Assembly: GCA_030692375.1 (NCBI GenBank)
Contig: JAUYCD010000109.1
Span: 9,221-73,220 of the forward strand
DNA length: 64,000 nucleotides
DNA from: Candidatus Latescibacter sp.
GTDB taxonomy: Bacteria > Latescibacterota > Latescibacteria > Latescibacterales > Latescibacteraceae
Reading direction: 5' to 3'
Part shown: positions 24,121-56,282 of the stretch, piece after piece
Layout of the letters: every line of letters begins with the position of its first letter
Numbering within the stretch: position 1 is the first letter of the stretch
Made by a program: the position numbers and the translations under genes
Notes under the pieces: generated by a model
The model's input: only the letters and a program-made list of their open reading frames with translations
Database searches by the model: none
What the model was told of the DNA's origin: nothing

Positions 24121-24272
24121 AACTGTCTGAACCATGATTCGCTTGATTTCATGATTACCATGATTAGATGCCGAAACGAGTTCGGCATGACACGTGTCAC
24201 CCTGAACTTGTTTCAGGGTCATCATGGTAATCCTTGAATCCCATGAATCATGGTTCAGACAATCTGTGAGAA
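24121..24272. repeat. Nested palindromic compound element filling the pheS-pheT spacer
   Basis: Outer inverted repeat ctgtctgaaccatgattc/gaatcatggttcagacaatc, middle inverted repeat catgattaccatgat/atcatggtaatc, and a central gccgaaac..gttcggc-atgacacgtgtca-ccctgaac..gtttcaggg core. Confidence 0.75.
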
Positions 24273-24287
24273 AGGGTTGAATTTTTC

Positions 24288-26855
24288 ATGAAACTTTCGC
24301 TCGAATGGCTCGGACAGTATGTTGACCTTGCCGACCTTTCACCAAAAGATATCGCCTATAAACTGACCATGTCCACCGCTGAGGTCGAGGATGTGGAAAT
24401 ACTGAAACGCGCGGTGAAAGGGATTATAGCCGGAGAGATTATCGAGATTGAACCCATCGATACCGGCGACAGCGGCAAACTCATGCAGTATGTCACTGTG
24501 AACACCGGCGCGGAAACCTTCAAAACCGTTTGCGGCGCGCCCAATGTGAAACCGGGCATGAAATCCGCGTTCGCCGCCCCCGGCGCTGTCATCGCTGACA
24601 ATTTTTTAGTGCAGGAGCAAAAGGTCTTCGGCCTCATGAGCCGGGGAATCCTTTGCAGTCCGAAAGAGCTGGGCTGGGGCGAATCTCACGCCGGGATAAT
24701 TGCGTTTCCGGACAGTCTGCCAAAAGGAACCGAGCTTGCCTCCCTCGTTCCCGAATACGACCATGTCATCGAGATCGACAACAAGAGCATCACGCATCGC
24801 CCCGACCTCTGGGGTCATTACGGTTTCGCGCGGGAGATGGCCGCCATCTACGGGCGTAGTCTTAAACCGCTGGAGTTGATCGATGCTTCGGAAGGAAATG
24901 ACCTGCCTCCCTTCCCCCTGCGTATCGATGACCGTGAGGGCTGCCCTGGGTATTGCTGCCTGGAAATCGACGGCCTTTCTCCGGCTTTTTCGCCGGTGGA
25001 GATGCAGTACCGTCTCCTGGCGGTAGGTCTCCGGCCTATTAACCTGCTGGTAGACTTGACCAATTACCTGATGTGCGAGCTGGGGCAGCCCATGCACTCG
25101 TTCGACGGCGAGAGGGTGAGGGATATTATCGTTGCTCCCTTCGGAAAAATCGGCGCCTACCAGACACTGGACAGTGTGGAGCGGAAGATGATTCCCGAAG
25201 ACCTGATGATCTGCGACCATGACGGCCCCATTGCTCTGGCCGGTATCATGGGCGGCGAGGATTCGGAGGTAAAAGAGGGGACTTCACGGGTGCTTCTGGA
25301 AAGCGCCAATTTCAATCCCGCCCGCATCCGGAGGACCATGATCCGTCTCGGGCTGCGCACCGACGCCGGAGTCCGGTTTGAAAAGGGACAGCCGCCCTAT
25401 CACATGGCTCTTTCCATACGGCGTTTCGTTCATCTCCTCCGCGAGGCGGGGCAGAAAGCGAGGCTCCGCTCGCAGCTTACCTGCGGGGGTGATACCGGAG
25501 AAAAAGGCCGCCTTTTGTCCATGGATAAATCGGACCTGACTCGTTCCATCGGTATGGCGATCCCTGACGGGCGGGTGCGGAAGATTCTCGTTTCGCTCGG
25601 CTTCGAATGCACGATCAACGACAAGGAGATTCTCCTTGTTATCCCGCCGCACCGGAGTGCGAGGGACATTTCCATTCCCCGCGACATTGTCGAGGAGGTA
25701 GCCCGCATCTACGGCTACGACAATATTGTCCCGTCCATGCCTGATATGAAGATGCGGTCCGGTACATTTAATACCGAACTCCAGAAACAGCATAAAATCC
25801 GCCGATTCCTGAGCCAGGCTAAGGGATTTTCAGAGGTCCATACCTACAGTTGGTATGATGACATATGGCTCAAACGGATGGCATACAACCCGGGAGAGAC
25901 GCTGACCCTGGTGAATCCCGCCGCTGAGAACAACACCCGTATGCGCCGTGAGCTTATTCCGAACCTTTTGGAACTGGTGGAAATGAATGCGGTTCACCGC
26001 GACACTATCTCATTTTATGAAATAGGCAACGTGTTCCATCCCGCTCTTCGGCAGGCTCAGAGCCCACTGAACTCTGAGCTTGTCGAAGAGTCGAATGGTT
26101 TCCGGCAAGCCATGCATCTGGGAGGAGTGGTTTATCAAACGGAAAAAATCGGGAATCTCCAGGAACTTTTCCTGCGTGTAAAAGGGACTGTGGAGGAGAT
26201 ATGCGCATTTACGAATGCGGGGATTCCGGAATTCACCGCCTCGCACTCTTCGGCAGGCTCAGAGCCCACTGATCGAGCACTGAGCTTGTCGAATCGAGCA
26301 CTGAGCTTGTCGAATCAAGCACTGAGCTTGTCGAATCGAGCACTGAGCTTGTCGAAGTCCGCCAAACCCTGGACTGTACCAGGCTCTTATCTCAATATTC
26401 ATATTGGTGATTCCTCCGCAGGGCAGATCGGGTATCTTACAGGCAATCTTTTGAACCTTTACGAGCACTTAACGCAGATTGTCTGGTTCGAGCTCCTGGT
26501 GGATGTCCTGGCCGGGCCGACTTTCCCCGATGTATTGTATAGCGAGATACCGGTGTACCCCGGTTCCTGGATGGATTTCTCCGTTTTAGCGGATAAGAAT
26601 CTGAGCTATGCCGTTTTGGGGGAAAGCATAAGGAAGTTTACTCATCCGATTCTCCGAAAGGTAAAGTACCTGTATCTTTTCAGCGGAAATATTAAGGGGG
26701 GAGAAAAAGGCCTGCCGGAAGGCGAAAAAAAAATTTCCTATACATTCCGTTTCTGGCTCGGGCTGAAGGATAGAACTTTGACTGGAGATGATCTATCACA
26801 ATTTAGGGAGTTTTTCCTTCGCTATCTGGAAGAAAACGGACTTGCGCTAAGATAA
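24288..26855 (+). CDS. pheT: Phenylalanine--tRNA ligase beta subunit carrying in-frame repeat-element insertions
   Basis: Domain order is typical of PheT (N-terminal tRNA-binding, B3/B4, B5, C-terminal). At 855 aa it is about 50 aa longer than usual because of the repeat-encoded segments ..RQAQSPLNSELVEES.. and ..SHSSAGSEPTDRALSLSNRALSLSNQALSLSNRALSLSKS.. Confidence 0.93.
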   Translation: MKLSLEWLGQYVDLADLSPKDIAYKLTMSTAEVEDVEILKRAVKGIIAGEIIEIEPIDTGDSGKLMQYVTVNTGAETFKTVCGAPNVKPGMKSAFAAPGAVIADNFLVQEQKVFGLMSRGILCSPKELGWGESHAGIIAFPDSLPKGTELASLVPEYDHVIEIDNKSITHRPDLWGHYGFAREMAAIYGRSLKPLELIDASEGNDLPPFPLRIDDREGCPGYCCLEIDGLSPAFSPVEMQYRLLAVGLRPINLLVDLTNYLMCELGQPMHSFDGERVRDIIVAPFGKIGAYQTLDSVERKMIPEDLMICDHDGPIALAGIMGGEDSEVKEGTSRVLLESANFNPARIRRTMIRLGLRTDAGVRFEKGQPPYHMALSIRRFVHLLREAGQKARLRSQLTCGGDTGEKGRLLSMDKSDLTRSIGMAIPDGRVRKILVSLGFECTINDKEILLVIPPHRSARDISIPRDIVEEVARIYGYDNIVPSMPDMKMRSGTFNTELQKQHKIRRFLSQAKGFSEVHTYSWYDDIWLKRMAYNPGETLTLVNPAAENNTRMRRELIPNLLELVEMNAVHRDTISFYEIGNVFHPALRQAQSPLNSELVEESNGFRQAMHLGGVVYQTEKIGNLQELFLRVKGTVEEICAFTNAGIPEFTASHSSAGSEPTDRALSLSNRALSLSNQALSLSNRALSLSKSAKPWTVPGSYLNIHIGDSSAGQIGYLTGNLLNLYEHLTQIVWFELLVDVLAGPTFPDVLYSEIPVYPGSWMDFSVLADKNLSYAVLGESIRKFTHPILRKVKYLYLFSGNIKGGEKGLPEGEKKISYTFRFWLGLKDRTLTGDDLSQFREFFLRYLEENGLALR
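26262..26345 (+). repeat. Four tandem copies of the 21-nt unit cgagcactgagcttgtcgaat inside the pheT reading frame
   Basis: Read directly from the sequence. The same gagcttgtcgaa/ttcgacaagctc core recurs at 26072-26088, 186-200, 350-430 and 56106-56160. Confidence 0.85.
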
Positions 26856-26861
26856 AGACGG

Positions 26862-26925
26862 TTACCTCACCCCGGCCCTCTCCTAATTAGGAGAGGGTGC
26901 CCGAAGGGCGGGTGAGGTTTTAGGT
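26862..26925. repeat. cctcaccc..ccctctcctaattaggagaggg..gggtgagg palindromic element after pheT
   Basis: Same family as 37036-37140, 40228-40345 and 48150-48270. Confidence 0.7.
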
Positions 26926-26960
26926 CAAAATAATCCGCGGCAGGGAATTTAGAGTGGGAA

Positions 26961-28277
26961 ATGAAATCACGATTCAGTTCGATAGTCACCGCTACTCGAA
27001 ATTTCCTCGTTTCGATGCTCCTCTGGACCTACGCCGGTTTCGTGCTGTTCACCTGGTATGTTGCCCGTCTGACTCCTGACTGGGCTGTTCTTCTAAGGGT
27101 GTCTGCCAGTATCCTGAACGACCTTATCTGGATACCTCTGGGAATCATCTTATGGAGCCGGGCGTTCATGCTCTTTTCCGGGATAACCGGTAAAAGCCCA
27201 TTTAAAAGCTTTATACTCTCTTTTTTCATTGTCACTGGGATTTCTCTATTCGTTATCATTTTACCGGATATTTCATTCAAATTTCTGTTTATTCCTCTTG
27301 CGCTTACCATCCTTGCATTTATCCATGCATTGTTTACCAGGCGGCATGGTCATCCAGAACTTGTTTCAGGATCTATTTTGAAAAGGTATGTTCCGCTCTC
27401 ACTGATTATTCTTCTGACTGTTTTCCATTACCGGTATCAGATGCTCCCCCATAGAATTGAGGCGCGGTCGGGTATTGATATCAAGGTCATGAGTTATAAC
27501 ATTTATTGCGATGGCGGACGGGCTGACCGTGAAAAAGCGATCGAGACTATCCGGGACGAAGGCGCCGATGTAGTGTGCTGCATGGAATTCAACATCATCA
27601 CAGACAATGAGATATTCAGCCGTGAGCTGGGCGGTCTTTATCCTTACAAAGTGCTCAGCGGAGATCCCCGGGAATCGAAAAGCGGGGCGATAATTCTTTC
27701 AAAGTTCCCTGTTACTGTCGAAAAATTGCCTGATAACAAAGGCAACTGGAGCCACCGCATCGAACTGATTCTGGCGGAAGTGGACATGAAAGGAAAGAAA
27801 ATCCATATCTTGAATTACCACCTGAAGTCTGTTGGTCACTATATCGAGTATGTTGCTGACAAAAAGCTGGATTTCAAAAAGAAAATGGATTTCGCAGCCA
27901 GAAATGAGGTGATTTTTGACCGGGAGAAGTATACCCAGGCGAAATATATCGAGAATTTGATCACCACCTCCTCGGAGCCGGTTATCCTCTGCGGTGATTT
28001 GAACGATACTCCCAACAGCCGGGCGTTTCATGTCCTGGAAAAGAAGTACACCAACACCTTTTCCGCCCGAGGCTGGGGATTGGGAGCGACCTTTGGTGAA
28101 GAGAGGATGAAGGTCAAGCTGCGTAATAAACGGTTTATTTCCTTCCTGGCTCGGGATGTGTTACGGATCGACCACATCTTTGTCACCAAAGGCATGCGGG
28201 TGATCTCCGCAGAAGTCCTGAGCGGCGCCAGGGGTTCCGATCATAAACCAGTGGTAGCGGTAGTGCAAATAAAGTAA
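26961..28277 (+). CDS. Membrane-anchored endonuclease/exonuclease/phosphatase (EEP) family hydrolase
   Basis: N-terminal TM helices; the C-terminal part has KVMSYNIYCDGG, ILCGDLNDTPNS and GSDHKPVVAVVQIK, the EEP catalytic motifs. Confidence 0.7.
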   Translation: MKSRFSSIVTATRNFLVSMLLWTYAGFVLFTWYVARLTPDWAVLLRVSASILNDLIWIPLGIILWSRAFMLFSGITGKSPFKSFILSFFIVTGISLFVIILPDISFKFLFIPLALTILAFIHALFTRRHGHPELVSGSILKRYVPLSLIILLTVFHYRYQMLPHRIEARSGIDIKVMSYNIYCDGGRADREKAIETIRDEGADVVCCMEFNIITDNEIFSRELGGLYPYKVLSGDPRESKSGAIILSKFPVTVEKLPDNKGNWSHRIELILAEVDMKGKKIHILNYHLKSVGHYIEYVADKKLDFKKKMDFAARNEVIFDREKYTQAKYIENLITTSSEPVILCGDLNDTPNSRAFHVLEKKYTNTFSARGWGLGATFGEERMKVKLRNKRFISFLARDVLRIDHIFVTKGMRVISAEVLSGARGSDHKPVVAVVQIK

Positions 28278-28426
28278 CTGTCCATCTTGACGGTTTCCCC
28301 GCTTTTGTCTAATCCACCACATACTGAATACTTCTAACAAAATTCCACACCATAAAGTAGTATTTCAGAATTATCTTTCATGGAAAAATAAGATTTATTA
28401 TATTTTTTAGTTAATTCAAAAATATA

Positions 28427-30049
28427 GTGCTTATTCCCGGAGATAAAATGCCGAAGGTAGATTTTCTGATTATAGGGTCCGGTATCGCCGGTCTTTCCTT
28501 TGCGCTCAAGGTTGCCAAACTGGGCCGGGTGGCCATCATCACCAAAAAAGGCGATTGCGAGTCTTCCACCAATTACGCCCAGGGGGGCATCGCCAGCGTC
28601 CTGGGGAATGATGATTCCCCTGAACGTCATGTCGCCGATACACTGGCTGCCGGCGACGGCATCTGTCATGAAGATATGGTGCGGATGGTTGTCGAAGAGG
28701 GCCCGGGGATGATTGAGCAGTTGATTACCTGGGGCTGCCGGTTTAACCGTGAGCCGGACGGAACCCTGTCCCTGGGAAGAGAGGGAGGGCATACCCGTGA
28801 CCGGATCGTGCACACAGACGATCTTACCGGCCGTGAGATAGAGAGGGCGCTCATCGAGAGGGTGAAAGAGCATGAGAATATAACTTTTCTCAACAACCAC
28901 ATCGCGGTTGACCTCCTTACCGAGCATAATGTGGGGGTGATCAGCAAACACCGCTCCTTCAACTGTTTCGGCGCCTATGTCCTGGATGTTGAGAACGCCC
29001 GCATCGAGACTTTCATGGCGGGAACCACCCTTCTTGCCACCGGAGGGACCGGTCAGGTATACCTGCATACTACAAACCCTGAAATCGCCACCGGCGATGG
29101 GGTTGCCATGGCATTCCGCGCAGGCGCGAGCGTGGGAAACATGGAATTCATGCAGTTTCATCCCACTACGCTCAATCTCCCGGATGGAGGGTCGTTTCTT
29201 ATATCGGAAGCGGTAAGGGGATATGGCGGCATTCTGGTGACCGAGAGCGGGAAACGCCTCATGGAGTCTCATCCCATGAAAGACCTGGCTCCCAGAGATA
29301 TTGTGGCCCGGACAATCGACCATTACCTGAAAAGCAGCGGCCAGGAACAGGTGTACCTCGATATCACCGGATTCGACCCCGGCGCGACCAGGGCGCGATT
29401 TCCCCATATCCATGAAACCTGTCTCAGGTATGGTATCGACATTACCAGGGAACAGATTCCGGTTGTTCCGTCGGCGCACTATATGTGCGGAGGGGTGGTT
29501 ACCGATGCATGGGGACGGACCTCCATTTCCAATCTCTATGCAGCGGGAGAAACGGCATTCACCGGCCTGCACGGCGCGAACCGTCTGGCATCCAATTCCC
29601 TTCTCGAAGCGGTGGTCATGGCGGACCGTGCCGCGACGGCGGTGCGCAAAGAGCGCCAGAAACCCCAGGATCTCCCCGAAGTGCCCGACTGGAACGACCG
29701 CGGCACTTTTGACCCGGAGGAATGGGTTATCATATCACACGACAGGGAGAATATCCGTCGTCTCATGTGGGATCTGGTCGGCATTGTGCGGAGCGATTTC
29801 CGCCTGCGCCGGGCCATGAGCCGTATCGCTCTGATCCGTGAAGAAGTCGAGGAATACTACCGCCGCACCCGGCTTTCGCTCGAGTTGATCGAGCTTCGGA
29901 ACCTGGCGGTATCGGCCTGGCTTATTGTCGTATGCGCCCGGCACCGCAAGGAATCGCGGGGGCTGCACTATAATACCGATTACCCTGGCCGTGACGATCT
30001 GCTCTGGAAACATGATACCGTGATCAGGAATGAAGAGATACTTTTATAA
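28427..30049 (+). CDS. nadB: L-aspartate oxidase
   Basis: VDFLIIGSGIAGLSFAL..YAQGGIA.. FAD fold; length and motifs fit NadB. Confidence 0.88.
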   Translation: MLIPGDKMPKVDFLIIGSGIAGLSFALKVAKLGRVAIITKKGDCESSTNYAQGGIASVLGNDDSPERHVADTLAAGDGICHEDMVRMVVEEGPGMIEQLITWGCRFNREPDGTLSLGREGGHTRDRIVHTDDLTGREIERALIERVKEHENITFLNNHIAVDLLTEHNVGVISKHRSFNCFGAYVLDVENARIETFMAGTTLLATGGTGQVYLHTTNPEIATGDGVAMAFRAGASVGNMEFMQFHPTTLNLPDGGSFLISEAVRGYGGILVTESGKRLMESHPMKDLAPRDIVARTIDHYLKSSGQEQVYLDITGFDPGATRARFPHIHETCLRYGIDITREQIPVVPSAHYMCGGVVTDAWGRTSISNLYAAGETAFTGLHGANRLASNSLLEAVVMADRAATAVRKERQKPQDLPEVPDWNDRGTFDPEEWVIISHDRENIRRLMWDLVGIVRSDFRLRRAMSRIALIREEVEEYYRRTRLSLELIELRNLAVSAWLIVVCARHRKESRGLHYNTDYPGRDDLLWKHDTVIRNEEILL

Positions 30050-30066
30050 AGAAGGAATCCAGAATC

Positions 30067-30589
30067 CAGGAGCCAGAATCCAGAATCATGAAGCAAACAA
30101 ATGAGAATCTAATACTATACATTCTATCGATATCGCGGTTATGAAATGGAACGGTCTCCCGCAAAGAGTTTTGAAGATTTGCTGGTCTGGCAGAAATCAC
30201 ACCGGCTGGTTTTGGGTATATATAGCTTCAGCGAATCATTCCCAAATAAGGAAATGTACGGACTGATATCTCAGATAAGGCGCGCAGCGGTTTCCGTTCC
30301 TGCGAATATTGCCGAAGGTTTCAAAAAGCGGGGCTGTAACGATAAGGTTCGCTTCATGAACATAGCACAAGGTTCTTTGGAAGAATGTCGGTACTATCTT
30401 ATTCTGGCGAAAGATCTAGGATATGGGGACAGCATAAATTTGCTTAAACAGTTGGAAGAGGTGAGTAGACTCCTTGATTCATATTCCCGAACAATTAGTG
30501 CACAAAATTCCTGATATTATTGGAAGAAGAATATTCTGCTGTACTAATATATTTTCGCATTTATTCTGGATTCTGGATTCTGGCTCCTG
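30067..30589. mobile_element. Cassette of about 520 bp bounded by 21-bp perfect inverted repeats (caggagccagaatccagaatc) that carries the four-helix-bundle gene
   Basis: Left inverted repeat at 30067-30087 and right inverted repeat (as reverse complement) at 30569-30589. It sits between nadB and guaA. Confidence 0.6.
30146..30514 (+). CDS. Four-helix-bundle protein (23S rRNA intervening-sequence protein family, TIGR02436-like)
   Basis: ..FEDLLVWQKSHRLVLGIYSF..ISQIRRAAVSVPANIAEGF.R....F..IAQGSLEE..YL.LA.DLGY. Confidence 0.75.
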   Translation: MERSPAKSFEDLLVWQKSHRLVLGIYSFSESFPNKEMYGLISQIRRAAVSVPANIAEGFKKRGCNDKVRFMNIAQGSLEECRYYLILAKDLGYGDSINLLKQLEEVSRLLDSYSRTISAQNS

Positions 30590-30610
30590 AATTCTTCTTT
30601 TTGAGGTTTT

Positions 30611-32416: not shown

Positions 32417-32425
32417 GGAGGATAT

Positions 32426-33446: not shown

Positions 33447-33465
33447 ACCATCGAGGAATCACTGC

Positions 33466-34257: not shown

Positions 34258-34266
34258 AGAGGACTC

Positions 34267-35463: not shown

Positions 35464-35556
35464 GATAATAATAGAATACAGGAGTCAGGAGTCAGAAGAC
35501 AGAATGAAAGACAAGGACGAAGGATGAAAAGATTGTCTCTTGAGCATGTTTTGAGT

Positions 35557-35628
35557 ATTTAGATCCTGAAACGAGTTCAGGATGACACGTGTCATGCCGA
35601 ACTTGTTTCGGCATCTATTCCAGGATCA
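35557..35628. repeat. Palindromic element agatcctgaaacgagttcagg-atgacacgtgtcat-gccgaacttgtttcggcatct
   Basis: Near-identical copies occur at 49680-49745 and, split by another repeat, at 56078-56190. A partial copy forms the 5' end of the 58320 gene. Confidence 0.8.
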
Positions 35629-35681
35629 GCAATCAGCGTATGCAGAAAAATGTTTTCCATATATAAGGATGGTGAAACTTC

Positions 35682-36959: not shown

Positions 36960-37035
36960 AAACAAAGAAGGTAAAGACTGTCTGAACCACTGATAAAAAA
37001 GTATTGTTTACATTATTTTCTGGTGCTTCTATACC

Positions 37036-37140
37036 TCACCCCCTGTCCCCCTCTCCTAGTCAGGAGAGGGGGTAACTCGCGGCGGGCCATGTTATTACCC
37101 TCTCCTAATTAGGAGAGGGTGGCTGAAAGCCGGGTGAGGT
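37036..37140. repeat. Compound palindromic element: cctcaccc outer inverted repeats with cccctctcctagtcaggagagggg and ccctctcctaattaggagaggg hairpins
   Basis: Read directly from the sequence; it lies after glyA. Confidence 0.8.
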
Positions 37141-37162
37141 TTTTCTTCGAAGGGGAAGAACA

Positions 37163-40148: not shown

Positions 40149-40227
40149 TCGTTTGGAATGGGGTGTTTTGCGAATTGAAAATATGATGATGTGGCAAAAA
40201 GTGTTGCAAAGTCTTCAATTCTGTCGA

Positions 40228-40345
40228 AACCTCACCCGGCCTTTGGCCACCCTCTCCTAGACAGGAGAGGGTAAAGACTTGGCTCGCCGTGAGTTACCCC
40301 CTCTCCTGACTAGGAGAGAGGGATAGGGGGTGAGGTTTATAAAGC
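40228..40345. repeat. Compound palindromic element of the ctcaccc/ccctctcctag.caggagaggg family
   Basis: Read directly from the sequence; it lies after the PNP gene. Confidence 0.8.
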
Positions 40346-40536
40346 TGAGTAGGAGGTAAATTATCCTTTATTGCCGGGTAATCAAAATATAAATGGTTTG
40401 GAATTTTTTAATTTCTTATGTAAATTAATTCGATATTTTTCATCATAATGTTAAGGGTCATCCTGAACCTGTTTCCGTACCTTCTTTTCCTCGCTGCAGG
40501 TGAATGCTAATTTGGTATTTCCGAAAGGATATGCAT

Positions 40537-42425: not shown

Positions 42426-42599
42426 AGATATCCCCCTGTCCTACGGACATCCCCCTTGCTAAGGGGGACAAAAGATTATAGACGAAAAAGCTCTTTTAAC
42501 CCCCTTCGATAAGGGGGTCGGCGCAAAGCGCCGGAGGGATCAAAAACGCAGGAAAAAAATATTGACATTATCATAGCCGGCGCCGGTCCTGCCGGGCTC

Positions 42600-45948: not shown

Positions 45949-45980
45949 TCTCTCATTCCATTAAAAAAAGGAGCGCGAAC

Positions 45981-47069: not shown

Positions 47070-47081
47070 GAGAACTGGCGC

Positions 47082-48098: not shown

Positions 48099-48149
48099 AA
48101 GAAAGATACAATTCTCACTAGGGGGCGCTCATACACCCTTCTTCACTGT

Positions 48150-48270
48150 TTTAAACCACACCCCCTGTCCCCCTCTCCTAGTCAGGAGAGGGGGGTAACT
48201 CTTTACGTGCCACATCTTTACCCTCTCCTAATTAGGAGAGGGTGGCCGAAGGCCGGGTGAGGTTTTATCG
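48150..48270. repeat. Compound palindromic element, near-identical to 37036-37140
   Basis: acaccccctgtccccctctcctagtcaggagagggggg..ccctctcctaattaggagagggtggccgaaggccgggtgaggtt. Confidence 0.8.
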
Positions 48271-48331
48271 AAATACGACTTTCAGCCGATTTATAGAATA
48301 TCATATTTTTAAAAATAAGGAAATACATGCT

Positions 48332-49636: not shown

Positions 49637-49679
49637 TAAAGTAATCCGAGTATGTCATTTAGTAGGTATTTTGGAAGAA

Positions 49680-49745
49680 TTGCTTCGATTTAGATCCTGA
49701 AACAAGTTCAGGATGACACGTGTCATGCCGAACTTGTTTCGGCAT
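49680..49745. repeat. Palindromic cctgaaac/gccgaac element, copy of 35557-35628
   Basis: tttagatcctgaaacaagttcaggatgacacgtgtcatgccgaacttgtttcggcatctat. Confidence 0.8.
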
Positions 49746-49919
49746 CTATAAACGATCACAAATCAGATCGCGAACCTTGTCGAATGGTAAGATAGTAAAA
49801 ATGTAAAATGACCCTTCAACTCGTCAGTATGATTTCAATATCACTCACCGAAGGCGCTTCTGATGCAATGCGCACCAGACAGCCTCATGCTGCTTGACAT
49901 TCATTTTGGAGTATACTCA

Positions 49920-51149: not shown

Positions 51150-51156
51150 GGAAACC

Positions 51157-52152
51157 ATGAAACCGCGCGATATATTTTTACAGGCGCTGGAGAGAAAACC
51201 GACGTCCCGGCCGGCAACAGGCAGCGCCACTTCCATAGTCACAGTCGACCTGATGGAGAAAACCGGTTTCTTCTTTCCCGATGTGCACTTTGATCCGGGA
51301 AAGATGGCCGGGCTTGCGGAGGCAGGGTATACAGAGCTTGGCTTCGATAATGTCATGCCCCTGTTCAGTGTCAGTCACGAATCGGCGGCCCTGGGCTGCC
51401 GGACCGACTGGGGAAGCATCGACAAGATGCCGGACTGCCGCGGAGGGTTGTACGGGATCGAGGATGAGATCATCATCCCGCCGGATTTTCTTGCCAGGCC
51501 GGAATGCCGTGTTCCGCTTCGAGCGCTTGAAATTCTGAAAAAACGGCATGGCAGCGAGGTCGCGGTGGTCGGGAAGGTATTCGGCCCCTGGACTCTTGGG
51601 TATCACCTGTTCGGAGTGGAGGAATTCCTGATCAACACCATTCTTAATCCGGATGCGGTGAAATGTGCGATCTCAACCCTGAAAGAGGTTACTGTCGCTT
51701 TCGGGAAAGCGCAGATCGAGGCAGGCGCGGACGCCCTGACCCTGGGCGACCATGCCACCAGGGACCTCTGCTCGCCGCTTGCGTACCGTGATTTTCTGAA
51801 AGATGTCCATTTTGAGATCAACGAACGCCTTGCCTGCCCCATAATCCTGCATATCTGCGGGGAAACCGGCGACCGTATCGGGTATATCCGTGAGACTGGC
51901 GTCGCCTGTTTTCATTTCGATTCCAAAGTCCCGGCCGGAACCGCCCGCGAACTGGCTGGTGAGAAGCTCTCGCTCATGGGCGGCACGAGCAATTTCGACA
52001 TAATCCTGAAGGGTACTCCCGAATCCATCGCCGCGGATGTGCGAAAGAAAAAGGCTGTCGGCATCGATATCATCGGCCCGGAATGCGCGGTCCCGCTCAA
52101 TGCGCCATGGAAAAACCTGATGATGATAGCGGAGGAAGTAAAGAGGGGGTGA
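51157..52152 (+). CDS. URO-D/MtaA-CmuA-family protein, paralogue 2
   Basis: ..TSRPATGSATSIVTVDLMEKTG.. and ..ILHICGETGDRIGYIRETGVACFHFDS.. are typical of methylcobamide:CoM-methyltransferase-like URO-D proteins. Confidence 0.7.
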   Translation: MKPRDIFLQALERKPTSRPATGSATSIVTVDLMEKTGFFFPDVHFDPGKMAGLAEAGYTELGFDNVMPLFSVSHESAALGCRTDWGSIDKMPDCRGGLYGIEDEIIIPPDFLARPECRVPLRALEILKKRHGSEVAVVGKVFGPWTLGYHLFGVEEFLINTILNPDAVKCAISTLKEVTVAFGKAQIEAGADALTLGDHATRDLCSPLAYRDFLKDVHFEINERLACPIILHICGETGDRIGYIRETGVACFHFDSKVPAGTARELAGEKLSLMGGTSNFDIILKGTPESIAADVRKKKAVGIDIIGPECAVPLNAPWKNLMMIAEEVKRG

Positions 52153-52229
52153 AGAGGGGAACTGAAAGCCACGATTCAGTATATCGGGCAATTCCTTTTT
52201 ATGCCCAGTCTCAGAAATATTTTTTTTCG

Positions 52230-52505
52230 TCAAATAGATTTCGCTACATGTTTAGCACGACGCGCAGGCGTTCCACAGAGCATCCCATTGGCGCTGATGT
52301 CCTCATCTATATCAGGCCAATGAACTCCTTCTCCGTTTCCCATGATCTCAAAGTTTTTTCGTTGCTCTGGTGTTGCTTCCGATAAACGCCATGACCACGC
52401 CAACGGCACGCTCACCGTCCTGCCATCCGCCAATTGCGCTTTAATGCTCTCATTCGTCACTTTCAATCCTATAATACGCGGCTCGCTATTCGCCACAGTG
52501 TTCAT
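52230..52505 (-). CDS. DUF2442-family protein (downstream partner of DUF4160)
   Basis: ..IIGLKVTNESIKAQLADGRTVSVPLAWSWRLSEATPEQRKNFEIMGNGEGVHWPDIDEDISANGML. The start is uncertain (52505 or 52541). Confidence 0.6.
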   Translation of the reverse strand: MNTVANSEPRIIGLKVTNESIKAQLADGRTVSVPLAWSWRLSEATPEQRKNFEIMGNGEGVHWPDIDEDISANGMLCGTPARRAKHVAKSI

Positions 52506-52725
52506 TCCATGCCTCCAAGATATTCTCCAAGTGTCTGACAATAAGGGCGCGAATACGATTCAATTCTGCCGGTGGGAATCCATCGTTGGCAGCCAGGGCT
52601 ACCGGCTCAAGCCAAAACTTACACAACATGCGTTCACGGCGAACGTGAACGTGTTTTGACTCATTGCAGTCAAAACTGTAGAAAAATAGACGGTACGGAC
52701 CAGGAATACCGTGAACGGTAGGCAT
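52486..52725 (-). CDS. DUF4160-family protein
   Basis: MPTVHGIPGPYRLFFYSFDCNESKHVHV.. is the DUF4160 hallmark. It overlaps the DUF2442 gene. Confidence 0.6.
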   Translation of the reverse strand: MPTVHGIPGPYRLFFYSFDCNESKHVHVRRERMLCKFWLEPVALAANDGFPPAELNRIRALIVRHLENILEAWNEHCGE

Positions 52726-52995
52726 CAAGTCCTCATCTGCCGGTCGAATATAAGTCATCTATACTTTATGCAGACATTATAGCAATATTCTCTTAAAAGT
52801 CAAGCTGATTCCACATGGATTCATAATCCTGAGCCACCGGAACGGAGTTCCCCTTACCCACTTGGAGAGGAGGTTTAGGGAATGCGGGTGTTTTTCCCGC
52901 TTGCAAAAATCCTTGCGTCTTTTTATCTTCTATTCACTTACACCGTTGAGAAACGCTGCGCCCCCATCCTCTTCACCCACTCAAGGAGGAGAACA

Positions 52996-54243
52996 ATGCT
53001 TTCGTCCCTTTACAAAGGTCTGCTTTTGCTTATTGTTTTCCTGCTGATAATCGGTCTGGCTTCATGTTCGAAAAAAGCTCCCGAAAAGGCAGTGCAACCG
53101 CCGCCCCCTCCGAACAGCCTTCTGGCTCTGAAAAACGCGCTAACCGACTCCACCAAACGTCCCATAATCCCCAGGCAGGTCGGAAAAGAGAATAAACAGC
53201 TCATAACCCTCGCCGGAATGGATCCTTCCGGGCCGCAGTTGGTCATCGATCCCGCACTGGCCGGAAGGGTCATGGGTGTTTCCTTTGACGGGGATAACGG
53301 CGACAACCTCTTCTGGGTAGATAAGTCCATCCTCGATGGAAGTTACTTCAGCGCCAAACCGCCGAGCTGGAACGCCGGAGGTCTCCGTACCTGGCTGTCT
53401 CCCGAAGACCTGTTTTTCCTGCCGGAGGACAAGGATGCGAAGAAGTGGTTTGTGCCCGCCGAGCTCGACCCGGCGCCCTATACAGTGTATGCTCAGGGTA
53501 AAGGCGAAGTTACCCTTCAGCTTACCACAAGCATCAAATCCAACATGGGGAAGACCTATAACCTTCTCCTCACCCGCCGTATCCAGCTTGTTCCTTTCTA
53601 TACCGATTCGGTCGGGACGGTGTTGCCGAAGGACCTCAAGTATGTAGGCATAAATCTCTTCCATTCCATGCAGAATCTATCCGATGGAATAATCGGCAAG
53701 GACATGCCCTATATCTGCCTCTGGAGCCTTCTCCAGATGAATCCCTCCGGGACCATGCTCATCCCCCTCGCCAAAAAAGCCGACCCAAAGAGGGCATACC
53801 GCGACTATTTCAATCCGCTGGGGCCGGACCGTATTGCCATCGAGAACAATATCATCTCGGTGAAGATCGACGGGAAATACCGCTCAAAGATCGGTGTGAA
53901 CGCTAAAGCCGCCGGGCCTGGTATCGCATACCTTAAGGATGAGGGCAGCGGCCAGGGAATACTGTTCGTCCAACTTTTCACGGTCGATCCTAAAGGGATC
54001 TATGTAGACAAGCCCTGGGGCAAGAAGAGCGATTACGGCGACGCTATCGAGATGTACAATGATGACGGCAACATGGGCGGTTTCACCGAAATGGAGTGCC
54101 ACAGCCCGGCGAAAAAAATGGCCAGGGGTGAGTCGGAATTTCATGAACTCCACCTGCACATTTTCAAGGGACCTATACCCGAACTCCATAAAATCGGCTC
54201 TTTGCTCCTTTCGACCGATATTTCCAAGGCGAAATATTATTAA
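52996..54243 (+). CDS. Lipoprotein, hypothetical (415 aa)
   Basis: AAGGAGG RBS; MLSSLYKGLLLLIVFLLIIGLASC lipobox. Confidence 0.65.
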   Translation: MLSSLYKGLLLLIVFLLIIGLASCSKKAPEKAVQPPPPPNSLLALKNALTDSTKRPIIPRQVGKENKQLITLAGMDPSGPQLVIDPALAGRVMGVSFDGDNGDNLFWVDKSILDGSYFSAKPPSWNAGGLRTWLSPEDLFFLPEDKDAKKWFVPAELDPAPYTVYAQGKGEVTLQLTTSIKSNMGKTYNLLLTRRIQLVPFYTDSVGTVLPKDLKYVGINLFHSMQNLSDGIIGKDMPYICLWSLLQMNPSGTMLIPLAKKADPKRAYRDYFNPLGPDRIAIENNIISVKIDGKYRSKIGVNAKAAGPGIAYLKDEGSGQGILFVQLFTVDPKGIYVDKPWGKKSDYGDAIEMYNDDGNMGGFTEMECHSPAKKMARGESEFHELHLHIFKGPIPELHKIGSLLLSTDISKAKYY

Positions 54244-54640
54244 AAAGCAGAATACAGGAGTCAGAATAAAAGACAATTTCTCGCAAAGTTCGCAAAGTTC
54301 GCAAAGAAAGAAATGAAGATGTCTGAACCACGGATAGCCGGGATTGAAGGACAGGATAAAGAGACAAAGACAGGATGAAAAGATATTTTCCCTCTTCTGT
54401 ATTTTGTATACTTTCTTTATCGCTTTTGCGTCTGGATAAATTTATTTACATCCCGTTTATCCGTTCATCCTGACCATCCGTGGTTCAGACAATCTTTCTG
54501 TCTTTTCATCATCTTCTATCACTCACATCACACAAATCAGTGGTTCAGACAATCCTTCATCCTTTTCTTTCCTTTTGACTTTTGCCCCCGGAAAATGTAT
54601 CCTGTATAGAGCATATTTGGAGAAACCGATGAAGGAGGAT
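54244..54640. repeat. 400-bp repeat-dense intergenic region: 3x cgcaaagtt tandem repeat, three gtggttcagacaatc motifs, and caggagtcag motifs
   Basis: Read directly from the sequence. The gtggttcagacaatc motif also occurs at 1340-1357, 24121-24140, 24253-24270 and 36975-36995. Confidence 0.7.
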
Positions 54641-54644
54641 TAAA

Positions 54645-56015
54645 TTGAAATATCTTACCGTGTTCTTGCTGATAGTTCTCTTTCCTTTCCACGCCGGGTC
54701 ACAATCCAGGGGACCGGATTATCAATGGTATACCGAAGGCAATTACATTCCCGCAACACGGGTGAAAGTTGTGTTGAAAAATGTTCTTGATTTCGGCCGT
54801 ACATACTGTCCGGTAATCATCCCTCGAAAAGATTTTCCCATCCCCAATATCAGCGATTTTTACGTGACTGTCGTCGACCCTTCCCTGCCATCGGACACGG
54901 AACCGACCGAGGCGGAGATAAAAGCTGTCGGCGGCTGGAAAACCCGTCAGGAAACCAACGGCCATTATCTTCGGTATCAGCTCGACGATCTTGACAAGGA
55001 CGGGCTATGGGATGAACTGTATTTTGCCTGTGATATAAAGCCAAAGGAAACAAAAACTGTTTATGTATATGTGCAACCGCCTCAGCAATTATGGCTTCGA
55101 GGGCTTTACAGACATGAAACACATTGCATCATAGGCAATTACGAACGCAATTTTATACCCTGGTGGGAATCGGAAGTGATCGGATGGAAAATCGCCACCC
55201 TTACCGATGTGGATTTATTCGGCAAGCGGGAACGTATCATGATAACGCCAATGGAATGCATCGAAAACTGGGCCGGGTATAACAGGCCGTATAGATACGG
55301 CCTGGACATTCTCCTTGTCGGCAGCACTTTTGGAGCAGCCGGGCTCTGCCTTTTTGAAGAGCCGGCCATTCCCGATTCGGTTTCACGGCCAAGATTCAGC
55401 CCCACGAGCAAAGAGGGGCAGTATTATAATACACGGTATTCGCGGGATGTTGTGGTCAACGGCCCCATGAGAAGCATAATCCTTGTCCGAACCATGGACT
55501 GGCGTTCCGGAAAAGGATTGTATGCTCTCGACCAATACTATACCGCTTACGCCGATAAATATTATTCGACCTGCAAGGCGGTATTTAAAACCTTCGTTCC
55601 GGAGGAAAAGAAAACGCTTTTCGGCTGCGGCATGAGAGCCATTATGGATCAATACGACTACTACCAGAAAGGCGGCACGGTCATTTCTTACGGGAAAAAT
55701 GTCGTCATCGAGTCGCCCAGTCCCGATGAAAAAGGGCAGGAAAAGGTGCGGGCTGTTCTTGATTTTGAAGGTCTCGCGCTTGTGGTCAAAGACAAATACA
55801 AACCGCAGTACCAGTATGTTAAATCCTATGGCGGAAACCATTGTTTCAGGATACCGGTTAATGACGAAAAGACCTTTGAATATCTTTTCGCCGGCGCATG
55901 GAGCGAGGGGCTCGACAATAAAAATCGGGAAGCTTTCCAGGATTATGTATTGAAGGCCGCCCAGGAATTCAATAATCCGCTGGACATCGTTGAATACACC
56001 ATTGAAAAGAAATAG
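54645..56015 (+). CDS. Secreted hypothetical protein (456 aa)
   Basis: Signal peptide MKYLTVFLLIVLFPFHAGSQS; no family recognised. Confidence 0.6.
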   Translation: MKYLTVFLLIVLFPFHAGSQSRGPDYQWYTEGNYIPATRVKVVLKNVLDFGRTYCPVIIPRKDFPIPNISDFYVTVVDPSLPSDTEPTEAEIKAVGGWKTRQETNGHYLRYQLDDLDKDGLWDELYFACDIKPKETKTVYVYVQPPQQLWLRGLYRHETHCIIGNYERNFIPWWESEVIGWKIATLTDVDLFGKRERIMITPMECIENWAGYNRPYRYGLDILLVGSTFGAAGLCLFEEPAIPDSVSRPRFSPTSKEGQYYNTRYSRDVVVNGPMRSIILVRTMDWRSGKGLYALDQYYTAYADKYYSTCKAVFKTFVPEEKKTLFGCGMRAIMDQYDYYQKGGTVISYGKNVVIESPSPDEKGQEKVRAVLDFEGLALVVKDKYKPQYQYVKSYGGNHCFRIPVNDEKTFEYLFAGAWSEGLDNKNREAFQDYVLKAAQEFNNPLDIVEYTIEKK

Positions 56016-56077
56016 TTATTTCGTCTTTTCAAACCACTATATATGACGACATAATTATTGCTCATGTTTTGAGTGAT

Positions 56078-56282
56078 TAGATCCTGAAACGAGTTCAGGA
56101 TGACACGTGCACTTCGACAAGCTCAGTGCTCGGTCAGCGGACTCAGAGCCTGTCGAAGAGTCCGCTACATCCTGAACTCGTTTCAGGATCTAATTTTAAA
56201 TCACGGCACAATATTTTTAAATTCAAAAGAAGCAACTATTCTTTTCCCCTCGCCCGCTTACGGGAGAGGGGGCAGGGGGTGA
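56078..56282. repeat. Composite element: a cctgaaac palindrome split by a ttcgacaagctcagtgctcgg..gagcctgtcgaag unit, followed by a cccctcgcccgcttacgggagagggggcagggggtgagg hairpin
   Basis: Read directly from the sequence. It links the pheT-internal repeat family with the intergenic palindromes. Confidence 0.75.

Follow-up and report, generated by a model that had tools for sequence, protein, structure and literature searches.

Gene spacers of a Candidatus Latescibacter genome fragment hold a dense mosaic of short palindromic repeats

In our judgement, short non-coding DNA repeats of three known kinds, all of them structure-forming, probably make up a BIME-like mosaic in the gene spacers of Candidatus Latescibacter (Latescibacterota), where they would act at the DNA level and be copied in trans. 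These repeats belong to recognizable families, are under structural constraint, recur across distant lineages and have recently been gained or lost between strains. The main families have already been described in other bacteria, which makes these spacers a new, densely populated case of something already known.

Results

Repeat census and chance expectation

We analyzed a 64-kb stretch of a Candidatus Latescibacter MAG (the window), whose SHMT and PheT are 100% identical to proteins of a Candidatus Latescibacter sp. MAG, and restricted the repeat count to these 64,000 nt. The census gave 34 blocks with at least 50 units that cover 2,739 nt, i.e., 4.3% of the window and 26% of its non-coding bases, and an earlier note on the same DNA had thus put the density too low at around 20 copies. 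The motifs that it had assigned to families (a), (b), (c) and (d) were all found where it had placed them, and its count of four or more families was right in that several are present but short of the at least seven that we distinguish. It had missed family (e) CTTCGACAAGCTCAG, the nonamer family (g), a GTAG-type REP at 4493-4525 and a (b) half-unit at 11078-11124, and its family (d) mixed a palindrome terminus, AAAGAnTGTCTGAACC, with unrelated heptamer repeats (CAGGAGT/GAATCCA).

All motifs were far more frequent in the window than in 100 dinucleotide-preserving shuffles, with 12 observed versus 0.16 expected for the (a) core, 9 versus 0.00 for the (b) hairpin, 2 versus 0.03 for the strict (c) pattern, 6 versus 0.42 for the (d) terminus and 13 versus 0.08 for the (e) motif. 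The repeat families are genuine and not due to chance. The composites are predicted to fold into stem-loops (z-scores of -4 to -12), and we confirm that the elements nest at 24121-24272 and combine at 56078-56282, as the earlier note had stated. Their distribution is patchy, with the motifs no more than at background level across 858 kb of metagenome loci taken without selection.

Family (a), a TGTC-tagged REP

The label REP-like, given to the elements before, suits the two main families: (a) is a CGTC/TGTC-tagged REP by the published definition (PMC3733652), and (b), judged by its sequence, is the BoxC/PIT/TM_ECO motif. A single (a) unit folds into an unpaired TGTC, an 8-bp stem opening with A-T/T-A and a 5-nt loop; we place it in sub-family 2 (CGTC-2) by geometry only. 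The copies are as follows (here and below, strand is given where one was assigned):

4412..4474, plus strand: single unit whose 33-nt loop insert is identical to the 5' end of a small ORF at 58317
6195..6257, plus strand: another copy of the preceding unit (95%), 33-nt insert included, in a divergent spacer
24121..24272: d-a-d composite in the pheS-pheT spacer; fold -75.6 kcal/mol, z -12
27351..27377, minus strand: single unit, in-frame HPELVSGSI within the Exo_endo_phos ORF 26961-28277
35557..35618: dimer of CCTGAA and GCCGAA hairpins, TGTC tags meeting at an ATGACA-CG-TGTCAT center; z -7.0
40459..40482, minus strand: decayed unit, dksA-like start 21 nt downstream
49688..49749: dimer, 98% identical to 35557-35618; z -8.1
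56075..56194: a-e-a composite, two (a) hairpins around two (e) hairpins (56105-56165); z -11.8

In the d-a-d composite, a tag-to-tag (a) heterodimer (24162-24223) lies within a long palindrome with 41-nt arms (24124-24164/24221-24261), while the unit at 6195..6257 had previously been swallowed by a false N-terminal extension of a permease ORF. The 24-nt (a) core matched 22 loci, where by our own calculation fewer than 1 would be expected by chance in 596 Gb, and its hosts comprise Patescibacteria, Peregrinibacteria, Alpha- and Gammaproteobacteria, Bacteroidota, Rhodothermales, Ignavibacteria, Armatimonadota, Vampirovibrio and Babeliaceae. The hairpin also occurs in Treponema and Sphingobium replicons and is known from more than 10 phyla, with compensatory changes in its stems. 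The 5-nt 5' strand, which our search pattern had left free, was perfectly complementary in 22/24 seeds, including four compensatory variants. The neighbors of (a) hairpins in other phyla are ordinary housekeeping genes.

Families (b) and (c), candidate triplex motifs

Family (b) fits both the pattern and the mirror rule of the TM_ECO intrastrand-triplex motif (Holder 2015, PMC4666352, which cites previous Maher-lab work):

6361..6502: inverted dimer of BoxC/TM-like units in a divergent spacer; z -8.0
11078..11124, plus strand: half-unit, CCCTCGCCC variant
23018..23062, plus strand: half-unit
26862..26925: closed unit; z -4.5
37033..37143: inverted dimer within a 173-nt block (36977-37149)
40226..40342: inverted dimer, oriented opposite to 37033-37143
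48149..48266: inverted dimer
56242..56288, plus strand: half-unit before an aldo/keto reductase gene

The closed unit consists of an outer stem CCTCACCC/GGGTGAGG, a palindromic CCCTCTCC hairpin and a GCCC-GAA-GGGC mini-hairpin followed by TTTT, and can be read as a triplex motif on either strand. The copy at 56242..56288 matches BoxC sites of E. coli from end to end, flanks included (e.g., in the araA-araD spacer). Between genes of 1,124 E. coli genomes, at sites that carry no annotation, 92-96% of the length of 56240-56290 can be aligned, at 79-84% identity. Among the (b) matches in viral contigs, 98 of 159 have the unconstrained CCCTCTCC strand.

Family (c) is a variant of the BoxC/PIT/TM type by its architecture, i.e., mirror-repeat logic and a mini-hairpin in the second loop, and not by a published consensus:

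6120..6190, minus strand: single unit
22470..22590: inverted dimer, DUF2442 ORF 27 nt downstream; z -4.1
42426..42535: inverted dimer starting 1 nt 3' of a rluD-like stop codon; z -4.6

On the minus strand, the single unit reads Y strand, loop, R strand AAGGGGG, mini-hairpin and third strand GGGGGAT. Upstream of the dimer at 22470..22590 lie a hairpin that by eye looks like a canonical terminator and a scan-called promoter-like site. A further (c) element had been reported inside a MITE in a rhamnosidase gene; the stretch CCCCTGTAGGGGGG is indeed there but resembles (c) only weakly.

Family (e) and in-frame insertions

Family (e) is an unreported hairpin in which a core of 13 nt is conserved and the stem co-varies; by architecture and not by published consensus, it is probably related to the CGTC/TGTC-tagged REPs. 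Of 133 matches to it in IMG/VR contigs, 85 have complementary flanks, compared to 4 of 86 when the 15-mer was reversed as a control. Besides the a-e-a composite, the window contains:

178..427, minus strand: units 178-205 and 349-427, in-frame GAGFDKLSQP; GGFDKLASTGSASGRALSLSKCDKLSL
26043..26092: inverted dimer, in-frame in pheT, LRQAQSPLNSELVEE
26245..26362: array of one unit and a 21-nt tandem of four, in-frame in pheT

The first pair sits in a minus-strand ORF running past the left end of the window, and the array encodes SSAGSEPTD followed by four RALSLSN. Both PheT insertions are absent from the homologues listed, and the 26043-26092 dimer is absent from 4/4 aligned ones. PheT has 855 aa, whereas full-length homologues among the 120 matches listed have ca. 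791-825 aa and the closest of these (74-80% identity) all have 796 aa. In-frame repeats affect pheT, a sugar-kinase-like ORF and the Exo_endo_phos protein.

Families (d), (f) and (g)

These families are long palindromes of heptamer or nonamer repeats that carry other elements and, in places, small ORF cassettes. We list them together with the only GTAG-tagged REP of the window, to which a palindrome in a relative (L027) is similar:

1339..1357, plus strand: (d) solo terminus GGTTCAGACAATCTTT
4493..4525, minus strand: GTAG-tagged REP GTAGGGGCAGG...CCTGCCCTAT
9874..9947: (g)-type TCTCGCAGAGACGCA repeats with (f)-like ones of purine/pyrimidine type, 10 nt 3' of a URO-D-like gene on the minus strand
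30050..30600: inverted (GAATCCA)n heptamer arms (30050-30087 and 30563-30600) with a PF05635 gene (30146-30514) between
35470..35542, plus strand: (f) heptamers CAGGAGT, then (d) edge GATTGTCT, directly 3' of the etfA stop
36975..36995, minus strand: (d) solo terminus, left edge of a block missing in L024 (see below)
54244..54640: (d)/(f)/(g) cluster filling the entire DUF6786-DUF4861 gene spacer

The heptamer arms of 30050..30600 pair in MFE and centroid folds alike. The cluster at 54244..54640 comprises (f) heptamers (54250-54266), three copies of the (g) nonamer TCGCAAAGT (54281-54306) and two (d) arms (54320-54351 and 54460-54491), with another terminus, the third, at 54536-54551.

Position relative to genes

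The elements had been described as sitting almost exclusively after stop codons. This is overstated and holds as a tendency, seen in a window with most genes on one strand: of 16 same-direction spacers, 8 have their first element within 20 nt of the stop (distances read from our table). In all, 10 of the 34 blocks are intragenic (six) or in divergent, promoter-side spacers (four), and several abut start codons, e.g., 23018-23062 (6 nt, pheS) or 56242-56288 (ending 1 nt 5' of the likely ATG).

Strain turnover and distribution

The families are not unique to the window, a point that the earlier note had raised, but were found in sister strains, in a phage-like contig of the same metagenome and in numerous further phyla. 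A JGI contig with 96-97% nucleotide identity (L024), assembled independently, confirms the flanking genes and bears these families too, yet repeat presence differs from the window at three sites. It lacks the 173-nt block 36977-37149, has other repeats upstream of glyA, and contains a d-a-d composite 3' of an alr-like gene where the window has a remnant alone, with AAG shared by the junctions. The (a) dimer 35557..35618 is replaced by other repeats in L024, and an 83% identical copy of the composite at 24121..24272 is present there at another locus. More distant relatives have other repeat families in the corresponding spacers; the 81% relative L027 has a heptamer and (d) palindrome instead of the (a) dimer at 49688..49749 and a GTAG-type REP instead of the (b) dimer at 48149..48266.

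Discussion

We suggest that these repeats would act as DNA, forming hairpins, cruciforms or triplexes during transient single-strandedness, and would be copied to new sites in trans. The candidate copier is a single-strand-specific nuclease or an HUH/RAYT-type transposase, with GTAG REPs as a precedent; alternatively, template switching and gene conversion between copies may do the same. Copies would persist at sites of low harm, i.e., in spacers right after stops or, if the frame is kept, in protein surface loops, and slippage at short direct repeats would remove or rearrange them; transcript effects such as the shielding of mRNA by a 3' hairpin would be secondary. We know of no mobilizing enzyme for CGTC REPs or BoxC, and neither the 64-kb window nor the surroundings of the hairpins in 22 other genomes yielded a transposase, RAYT or other HUH gene. 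For TM_ECO, no association with transposons, phages or plasmids was seen (PMC4666352), which leaves the copying step without a known agent. Against our explanation also speak the strain differences, which are messy indels at AAG microhomologies instead of clean insertions and could be deletions, and the conservation of nucleotide sequence across phyla, which is unusual for selfish repeats and could point to a host function.

Alternatively, the elements might mainly be RNA signals at operon 3' ends that selection rather than selfish spread maintains, be it as intrinsic terminators, as exonuclease blocks stabilizing upstream mRNA or as RNase processing sites. The proximity to stops in half of the same-direction spacers agrees with this, as do the very stable RNA folds of every composite, the (a) dimer and (c) unit placed exactly between a stop and the next ribosome-binding site on phage-like contig L001, and the probable transcription of many REPs noted by Di Nocera et al. 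(PMC3733652). On the strand that is sense for the gene upstream, the four complete (b) forms moreover end in GGGTGAGG and TTT(T), an ending confined to closed and dimeric forms. We nevertheless regard such a role as unlikely given the intragenic and divergent blocks, the occurrence of both unit orientations and the variable presence between 96-97% identical strains. The terminator role proposed earlier is not supported, with a consensus scan flagging one (a) hairpin only and a terminator total at chance; (a) and (c) have no T-tracts, and hairpins that by eye look like canonical terminators lie elsewhere in the window (ca. 15590, 22340 and 61175). For E. coli BoxC/PIT, neither promoter nor terminator activity is reported, and purine-motif triplexes are impossible in RNA (PMC4666352). 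The likewise proposed mRNA stabilization is plausible by analogy with E. coli REPs.

The earlier term MITE-like applies to the long-palindrome carriers such as the d-a-d composite and to the separate MITE with perfect 23-bp terminal repeats that interrupts the rhamnosidase gene, but not to the remainder of the set. That the carriers (d-a-d and the 54320-54491 pair) are classical TIR MITEs with REP or triplex units as passengers, which assumes a DDE transposase encoded elsewhere in the genome, strikes us as more doubtful still, even with that genuine MITE nearby, imperfectly inverted arms of 32-41 nt, recurrence of the entire d-a-d unit at another locus and AAAGAnTGTCTGAAYY termini shared with relatives L025 and L027. 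None of the copies shows a target-site duplication, and termini often stand alone (1339, 36975, 54536). The arms consist of heptamer-like repeats and not of a unique transposase-binding end, and neither the window nor the related loci contain a transposase gene. This reading also cannot account for (a), (b), (c) and (e), because they lie mostly outside such carriers. Finally, the source is a MAG and assemblers are known to stumble on repeats, but that the repeats are chance matches or assembly artefacts has next to no probability, being already refuted by the shuffles, by contig L024 and by isolate genomes with the same families (E. coli, Mucilaginibacter, Novosphingobium and Treponema).

The mosaic of DNA-level repeats that we favor shares inverted doublets of palindromes, mosaic clusters, a position after genes and high density with E. 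coli REP/BIME and the REPIN-RAYT system of Pseudomonas (PMC3116915, PMC2817692, PMC6006769). It differs by having just one GTAG-tagged palindrome and no RAYT gene seen in the window, and REPINs are normally lineage-specific, whereas the sequences of (a), (b) and (e) are kept across phyla. Like TM_ECO, family (b) has the order CCCTCNCCC, loop, GGGNGAGGG, loop, GGGNGAGGG and includes the CCCTCGCCC "mismatch" variant; both are intergenic, at times in inverted pairs, in spacers variable among close strains (PMC4666352). In contrast to TM_ECO, which comes from 262 proteobacterial genomes, (b) is hosted by a distant phylum, loop 2 of many of its copies contains a GNRA-like mini-hairpin of 11-13 nt, and the 5' CCTCACCC strand of many could pair with the third strand in a predicted closed three-way form. 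Family (c) uses another triplet set, CCCCCTT/AAGGGGG/GGGGGAT.

The CGTC-tagged REP superfamily, which includes Neisseria dRS3 and Rickettsia RPE-4 and RPE-6 (Di Nocera, De Gregorio & Rocco 2013, PMC3733652), shares with (a) the tag, the 8-bp stem with complementary A-T start, the 5-nt loop and a short tail, inverted heterodimers mostly 3' of ORFs with some intragenic, some dimers set in longer palindromes (reported for H. neapolitanus) and a spread over several phyla including sphingomonads, Bacteroidetes and Spirochaetes. In contrast, Latescibacterota lie outside the five phyla reported, the (a) tail is CTA or CTC instead of CCA, (a) partners are only 2 nt apart and two (a) copies hold a captured 33-nt gene fragment in the loop. 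Rickettsia palindromic elements also keep the frame inside protein genes, even essential ones, while the Latescibacter inserts are shorter (15-36 aa) and partly tandem (four 21-nt units). The hosts differ as well, with Candidatus Latescibacter presumably being a free-living and not an obligate intracellular bacterium.

Cyanobacterial STRR heptamers and small dispersed repeats, reportedly the subject of work by Mazel (1990) and Elhai (2008), are said to show the same heptamer tandems in spacers, here (GAATCCA)n and (CAGGAGT)n, the same nesting of tiny repeats in heptamers and mini-palindromes and the same seeming mobility without a known enzyme, though with other unit sequences and in another phylum.

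Abundance and position of the repeats

The repeats listed in the earlier note, which had described at least four REP/MITE-like families, are present in the window where it placed them. Chance levels for the core motif of each family, including a family (e) missing from that list, were set with 100 dinucleotide-preserving shuffles, and every motif greatly exceeds its chance level.

Core motifs of the repeat families: matches in the window and number expected from shuffles
Family (a), core GAAACNNGTTCRGSAT: 12 matches, 0.16 expected
Family (b), hairpin: 9 matches, 0.00 expected
Family (c), strict hairpin: 2 matches, 0.03 expected
Family (d), terminus GGTTCAGACART: 6 matches, 0.42 expected
Family (e), CTTCGACAAGCTCAG: 13 matches, 0.08 expected

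Further additions are a nonamer family (g), a GTAG-type palindrome (4493-4525) and a (b) half-unit (11078-11124). Family (d) as first drawn had to be divided: its AAAGAnTGTCTGAACC palindrome terminus stands, but the tandem heptamers (CAGGAGT)n / (GAATCCA)n that had been joined with it are now kept apart as family (f). Composite elements fold with z-scores of -4 to -12. As a whole, the inventory comes to 34 blocks with 2,739 nt, equal to 4.3% of the window or 26% of all non-coding bases in it.

SHMT and PheT of the window match proteins of a Candidatus Latescibacter sp. MAG (77,762-nt contig) with 100% identity. Around the repeat blocks lie ordinary housekeeping genes, most of them on the + strand (dnaK, groESL, pheST, nadB, guaA, etfBA, glyA, nrdR, thrS, and others). 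Most blocks (24/34) lie in same-direction spacers, while four occupy divergent promoter-side spacers (6120-6502 and 11078-11124) and six are found inside ORFs. The proposed placement "almost exclusively" after stop codons holds as a tendency, with the first element no more than 20 nt from the stop codon in 8 of 16 same-direction spacers (read from the distance table). It is not a rule, because copies also occur in ORFs, in divergent spacers and abutting start codons, such as the (b) blocks 6 nt 5' of the pheS start (23018-23062) and 1 nt 5' of a likely ATG (56242-56288).

Family (a) and the tagged REPs

Judged by tag, stem, loop and arrangement, family (a) is a CGTC/TGTC-tagged REP that fits the published definition, so that the original label "REP-like" was right and can be replaced by a name. 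CGTC REPs occur in high copy number across a genome and have an unpaired tag at one end of the stem-loop (CGTC, often TGTC or CCTC), a stem of 8-9 bp with A-T in the first two positions, a loop of 4-5 nt, and a short unpaired tail with the consensus CCA; their units form mainly inverted dimers, often heterodimers, and dimers within longer palindromes have been described (PMC3733652). The TGTC tag of family (a) is unpaired in single-unit folds. Every copy in the window has TGTCAT just before the stem, and so do non-seeded copies from other phyla, with CGTCAT in its place in Treponema. The stem has 8 bp (AT-S-C-Y-G-A-A, opening A-T/T-A), the loop 5 nt (CTYGT or ACRAG), and the tail is CTA in the window, while other phyla have CTC (10/24) or the consensus CCA (4/24). 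Among 12 half-sites in 64 kb, the four complete copies are all tag-to-tag dimers with 2 nt between the partners, three of them heterodimers that join a CCTG-type stem (CCCTG at 24162) to a GCCG stem.

The 24-nt core, which by our calculation is expected by chance less than once in 596 Gb, has matches at 22 loci in Patescibacteria, Peregrinibacteria, Alpha- and Gammaproteobacteria, Mucilaginibacter, Sphingobacteriaceae, Rhodothermales, Ignavibacteriaceae, Armatimonadota, Vampirovibrio, Babeliaceae, and Novosphingobium, and BLAST also found family (a) in replicons of Treponema saccharophilum and Sphingobium. The 5-nt 5' strand that the search pattern had left free is perfectly complementary in 22 of 24 seeds from independent loci, with four compensatory stem variants (ATGCC/GGCAT, ATCCT/AGGAT, ATGCT/AGCAT, and ATCCC/GGGAT). 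BLAST of family (a) against phage records gave no match, and string searches of the literature with the cores of families (a) and (e) brought up no relevant paper. CGTC REPs had been known from five phyla, predominantly from Alphaproteobacteria (including Sphingomonas wittichii) and further from Bacteroidetes, Spirochaetes, Chlorobi, and Thermotogae; Neisseria dRS3 and Rickettsia RPE-4 and RPE-6 are classed among them, and they "apparently lack a dedicated transposase" (PMC3733652).

Two (a) hairpins flanking the permease gene carry in their loops (4427-4455 and 6210-6238) a stretch matching 58323-58355. All 33 nt agree with the 5' end of a small ORF at 58317 that is PBECR2-like (toxin-like), and they look like a gene fragment that was captured by an (a) REP and then copied. 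A CRISPR-like repeat of type I appearance, considered for the 29-nt loop insert CGGTTTTATCGTTCCCGCGAAGCGGCAAC, was rejected since the insert is that same 5' end.

Family (e) is a hairpin built of a conserved 13-nt core (TTCGACAAGCTCA) and a variable stem, whose strands differ between copies and stay complementary (GCAC/GTGC, GCTGGC/GCCAGC, GGACTC/GAGTCC, and CTC/GAG). Complementary flanks of at least 2 bp accompany 85 of 133 IMG/VR matches, versus 4 of 86 matches to a control 15-mer of reversed sequence. GACA or GAACG stands at the end of many copies, a hint of kinship with tagged REPs. In Treponema, Rhodothermales, and a MAG of Armatimonadota, family (e) adjoins (a) hairpins. On the Treponema saccharophilum replicon pTS1 (117463-157522), arrays of CGTC/TGTC REPs alternate with a CTTCGACTACGCTCAG hairpin between genes for leucine-rich-repeat proteins.

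Family (b) and its probable relative, family (c)

Family (b) matches in its pattern, and can be identified with, the BoxC / PIT / TM_ECO motif, which has been described as an intrastrand triplex motif. The TM_ECO pattern, CCCTCNCCC N3-6 GGGNGAGGG N3 GGGNGAGGG, occurs 3,610 times in 262 proteobacterial genomes, always intergenic, without strand bias and linked to strain-variable spacers, with other G/C-rich triplex motifs found in cyanobacteria; earlier work of the Maher lab cited there saw neither promoter nor terminator activity, and purine-motif triplexes cannot form in RNA (PMC4666352). Five (b) units (56247, 23025, 40299, 37035 on the - strand, and 26866 on the - strand) fit this pattern with short loops, the remaining ones carry a hairpin in loop 2, and the "mismatch" variant CCCTCGCCC is present as well. 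All eight (b) blocks are intergenic. The third strand mirrors the purine strand, GGAGAGGG against GGGTGAGG, in line with the triads G.G:C, A.A:T, and T.A:T. In 1,124 E. coli genomes, intergenic sites that bear no annotation, such as one in the araA-araD spacer, align to 56240-56290 over 92-96% of its length with 79-84% identity, and the flanks match as well. Of 159 IMG/VR matches to the (b) 3' half, 98 include the CCCTCTCC strand that the pattern had left free.

Relative to the described motif, the closed and dimeric forms of (b) are new. They carry a mini-hairpin within loop 2 (GCCC-GAA-GGGC and similar) that shows compensatory changes, and their third strand can pair with a 5' CCTCACCC strand. 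The same kind of mirror rule applies to family (c) (purine strand AAGGGGG, third strand GGGGGAT), again with a mini-hairpin in loop 2. Its two strands co-vary: AAGGGGAGA goes with GAGGGGAT at 22470, and both strands have six Gs in a viral-classified contig from the sister strain's metagenome. From this architecture, we infer that family (c) is a variant of the triplex motif. PLSDB BLAST with (b) and (c) returned no match, possibly owing to its low-complexity filter. A hammerhead or other ribozyme was rejected for the three-way (b)/(c) folds, which have no conserved core and no Rfam hit.

Palindrome arms and small cassettes

Families (d), (f), and (g) are palindrome arms made of short repeats, and they enclose other elements at 24121-24272 and 54244-54640. 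"MITE-like", the other half of the original label, applies in part. Terminal inverted repeats are present in the d-a-d composite, an (a) dimer inside (d) arms between pheS and pheT (41 nt, 83%; pair I3), in the 54320/54460 arms (32 nt, 81%; I4), and in the MITE of the rhamnosidase gene (23 nt, 100%; I7). Target-site duplication was not found, with no direct repeat beside any (d) copy and AAG alone shared at the junctions with the sister strain; the window, like the related loci, has no parent insertion sequence that shares these termini.

One gene of family PF05635 (30146-30514) lies between inverted (GAATCCA)n arms (30050-30600), which form a stem of ca. 35 bp around it in the MFE fold as well as in the centroid fold; its product class is that of 23S rRNA intervening-sequence, four-helix-bundle, Avd-like proteins. 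The same nadB-guaA spacer of an 80% relative (contig L025, 5407-5880) has a frameshifted PF13366 pseudogene (GxxExxY, PD-(D/E)XK) between nonamer inverted repeats, and the two genes look like alternative small cassettes at one hotspot. The window contains further insertions and duplications:

1563-1772: MITE of ca. 210 bp with perfect 23-bp terminal inverted repeats, disrupting the 3' end of the alpha-L-rhamnosidase gene, whose original C-terminus resumes downstream in another frame, to ca. 1384
7826-7939 and 8591-8704: 114-nt direct repeats, 92% identical, around a hicA/hicB-like pair (8044-8513), which makes this another small cassette between the copies of a long duplication; ORF 8590-8847 has the second repeat as its 5' part
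15474-15610 and 16097-16235: duplicated groEL 3' end and terminator (ca. 137 nt, 81% over a 75-nt core), flanking an inserted nucleotidyltransferase (MNT-like) ORF (15680-16009)
9958-11050, 51157-52152, and 58935-60191: three URO-D-family paralogues in 64 kb, two of which adjoin toxin-antitoxin-like NTase/HEPN pairs

Turnover between strains

A sister strain contig from a separate JGI assembly (L024), 96-97% identical to the window in DNA, differs from it at three sites. It is without a 173-nt block (36977-37149) that contains a (d) terminus and a (b) dimer (37033-37143), carries (g)- and (d)-type repeats upstream of glyA instead of the window's (a) dimer, and has a 148-nt d-a-d composite after an alr-like gene where the window retains only the remnant GGTTCGGGCAGTAA, which now forms the end of an ORF. 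Relatives at ca. 80% protein identity show other repeat families at the same spacers. A metagenome scan based on the aminotransferase provided two near relatives and, with all other loci, a negative control; the closest sister lineage (sample 3300075153) is 85% identical in SHMT and 80% in PheT. The motifs are at background level in 858 kb of unselected metagenome loci, and the families are thus patchy rather than universal. They rarely co-occur in other loci, which lends no support to the idea of repeats that always travel together.

The viral-classified contig IMGVR_UViG_3300036761_002570, from the same metagenome as the sister strain, carries an (a) dimer and a (c) unit (2779-2850 and 11100-11170), each exactly between a stop codon and the next ribosome-binding site, and may be a Latescibacter phage that shares its host's repeats.

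Copies inside genes

PheT of the window has 855 aa, compared with about 791-825 aa in full-length homologues and 796 aa throughout the closest ones (74-80% identity), both among 120 listed. Three lineage-specific in-frame inserts (26043-26092, 26245-26362, and about 26688-26729) account for the excess and are absent from the four close homologues that we aligned (795-796 aa). Two stem from family (e), reading LRQAQSPLNSELVEE and SSAGSEPTD followed by RALSLSN four times (a 21-nt tandem in four copies), while the third, of 8 aa (NIKGGE..EK), has no relation to any of the repeats. Repeats lengthen essential proteins, PheT among them, by 15-36 residues. Family (e) is also in frame twice in the left-end ORF, and an (a) unit is read as HPELVSGSI in an Exo_endo_phos protein.

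The longest-ORF starts at 6253, 48242, and 56126 run through repeat elements, which in this way cause false ORF extensions. For the permease and the aldo/keto reductase, the more plausible start is clearly a later one, and we infer the same for the aminotransferase. A tRNA-like ARAGORN call within the aldo/keto reductase ORF (56990-57078, - strand), whose 4-nt anticodon was left undetermined, is probably spurious.

Function and mobility

The suggestion that the repeats may double as terminators found no support. Intrinsic terminators are G+C-rich stem-loops with a T-run directly behind them. A terminator scan of the window gave totals equal to those of shuffles and flagged a single repeat, the (a) hairpin at 56169-56189. 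Families (a) and (c) have no T-runs; only closed and dimer (b) forms end in TTT(T), and their branched folds lie outside the model of the scan. By eye, canonical-looking terminator hairpins stand elsewhere in the window (ca. 15590, 22340, and 61175). Effects of the repeats on mRNA are possible. Rfam gave no hit at gathering score and five weak, unrelated ones at E up to 1. Integron attC sites were rejected; they have the consensus RYYYAAC / GTTRRRY, which the hairpin ends do not fit by eye.

Nor did the search for a mobilizing enzyme yield a candidate. REP/REPIN-RAYT systems combine GTAG-tagged palindromes with a cognate Y1 (RAYT) gene that the repeats flank. The GTAG tag is missing in families (a), (b), (c), and (e), the window having one GTAG palindrome, and no RAYT (Y1_Tnp) was hit among ca. 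38 window ORFs scanned. The 119 ORFs beside (a) hairpins in 22 genomes are housekeeping genes, so that a linked mobility gene was rejected; no Y1 gene is among the 25 families listed for them (98 others lie outside that list), and the (a)-hairpin loci of these genomes hold no relative of the PF05635 protein. A more far-reaching reading starts from two findings: CGTC REPs, BoxC-type motifs and family (e) keep their nucleotide sequence across distant phyla, and hairpins share spacers with ORF cassettes between heptamer or nonamer inverted repeats. To our knowledge, none of these three kinds of element has a dedicated transposase. Cassettes and small hairpins would then form one undescribed system that copies structured modules behind stop codons. 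Either a cassette-encoded nuclease or nucleic-acid-binding protein would copy DNA/RNA modules into spacers, or a reverse transcriptase acting in trans would do so, as in Avd-containing retroelements. We consider such a system very improbable. We conclude that the repeats are DNA-level, structure-forming selfish elements of known kinds which are gained and lost quickly in tolerant positions.

Significance and relation to known repeats

The observation of the earlier note is essentially sound, apart from its positional rule and terminator reading. What makes the repeats notable is mainly their density, the in-frame insertions, and the way in which several families mix in a candidate phylum. The range of CGTC-tagged REPs and BoxC/TM motifs is widened to an uncultured candidate phylum, where both superfamilies stand side by side at very high density, the repeats together taking up 26% of the non-coding DNA in 64 kb. 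The repeats also mark spacers that differ between strains of 96-97% identity, and metagenome assemblies are likely to break at them. That cores stay near-identical between E. coli and Latescibacterota with no mobilizing enzyme known is a puzzle that the cited papers had already posed and that we merely restate.

The d-a-d composite, a dimer embedded in a longer palindrome, resembles CGTC REPs (PMC3733652), and the in-frame copies resemble Rickettsia RPEs as well as REPs that Di Nocera et al. noted inside genes (PMC3733652). Like BoxC/PIT/TM_ECO, family (b) is intergenic only and sits in spacers that vary between strains. Finally, the a-e-a composite of the window (56075-56194) resembles the arrays of the Treponema replicon, and the partnership of families (a) and (e) is found in both.
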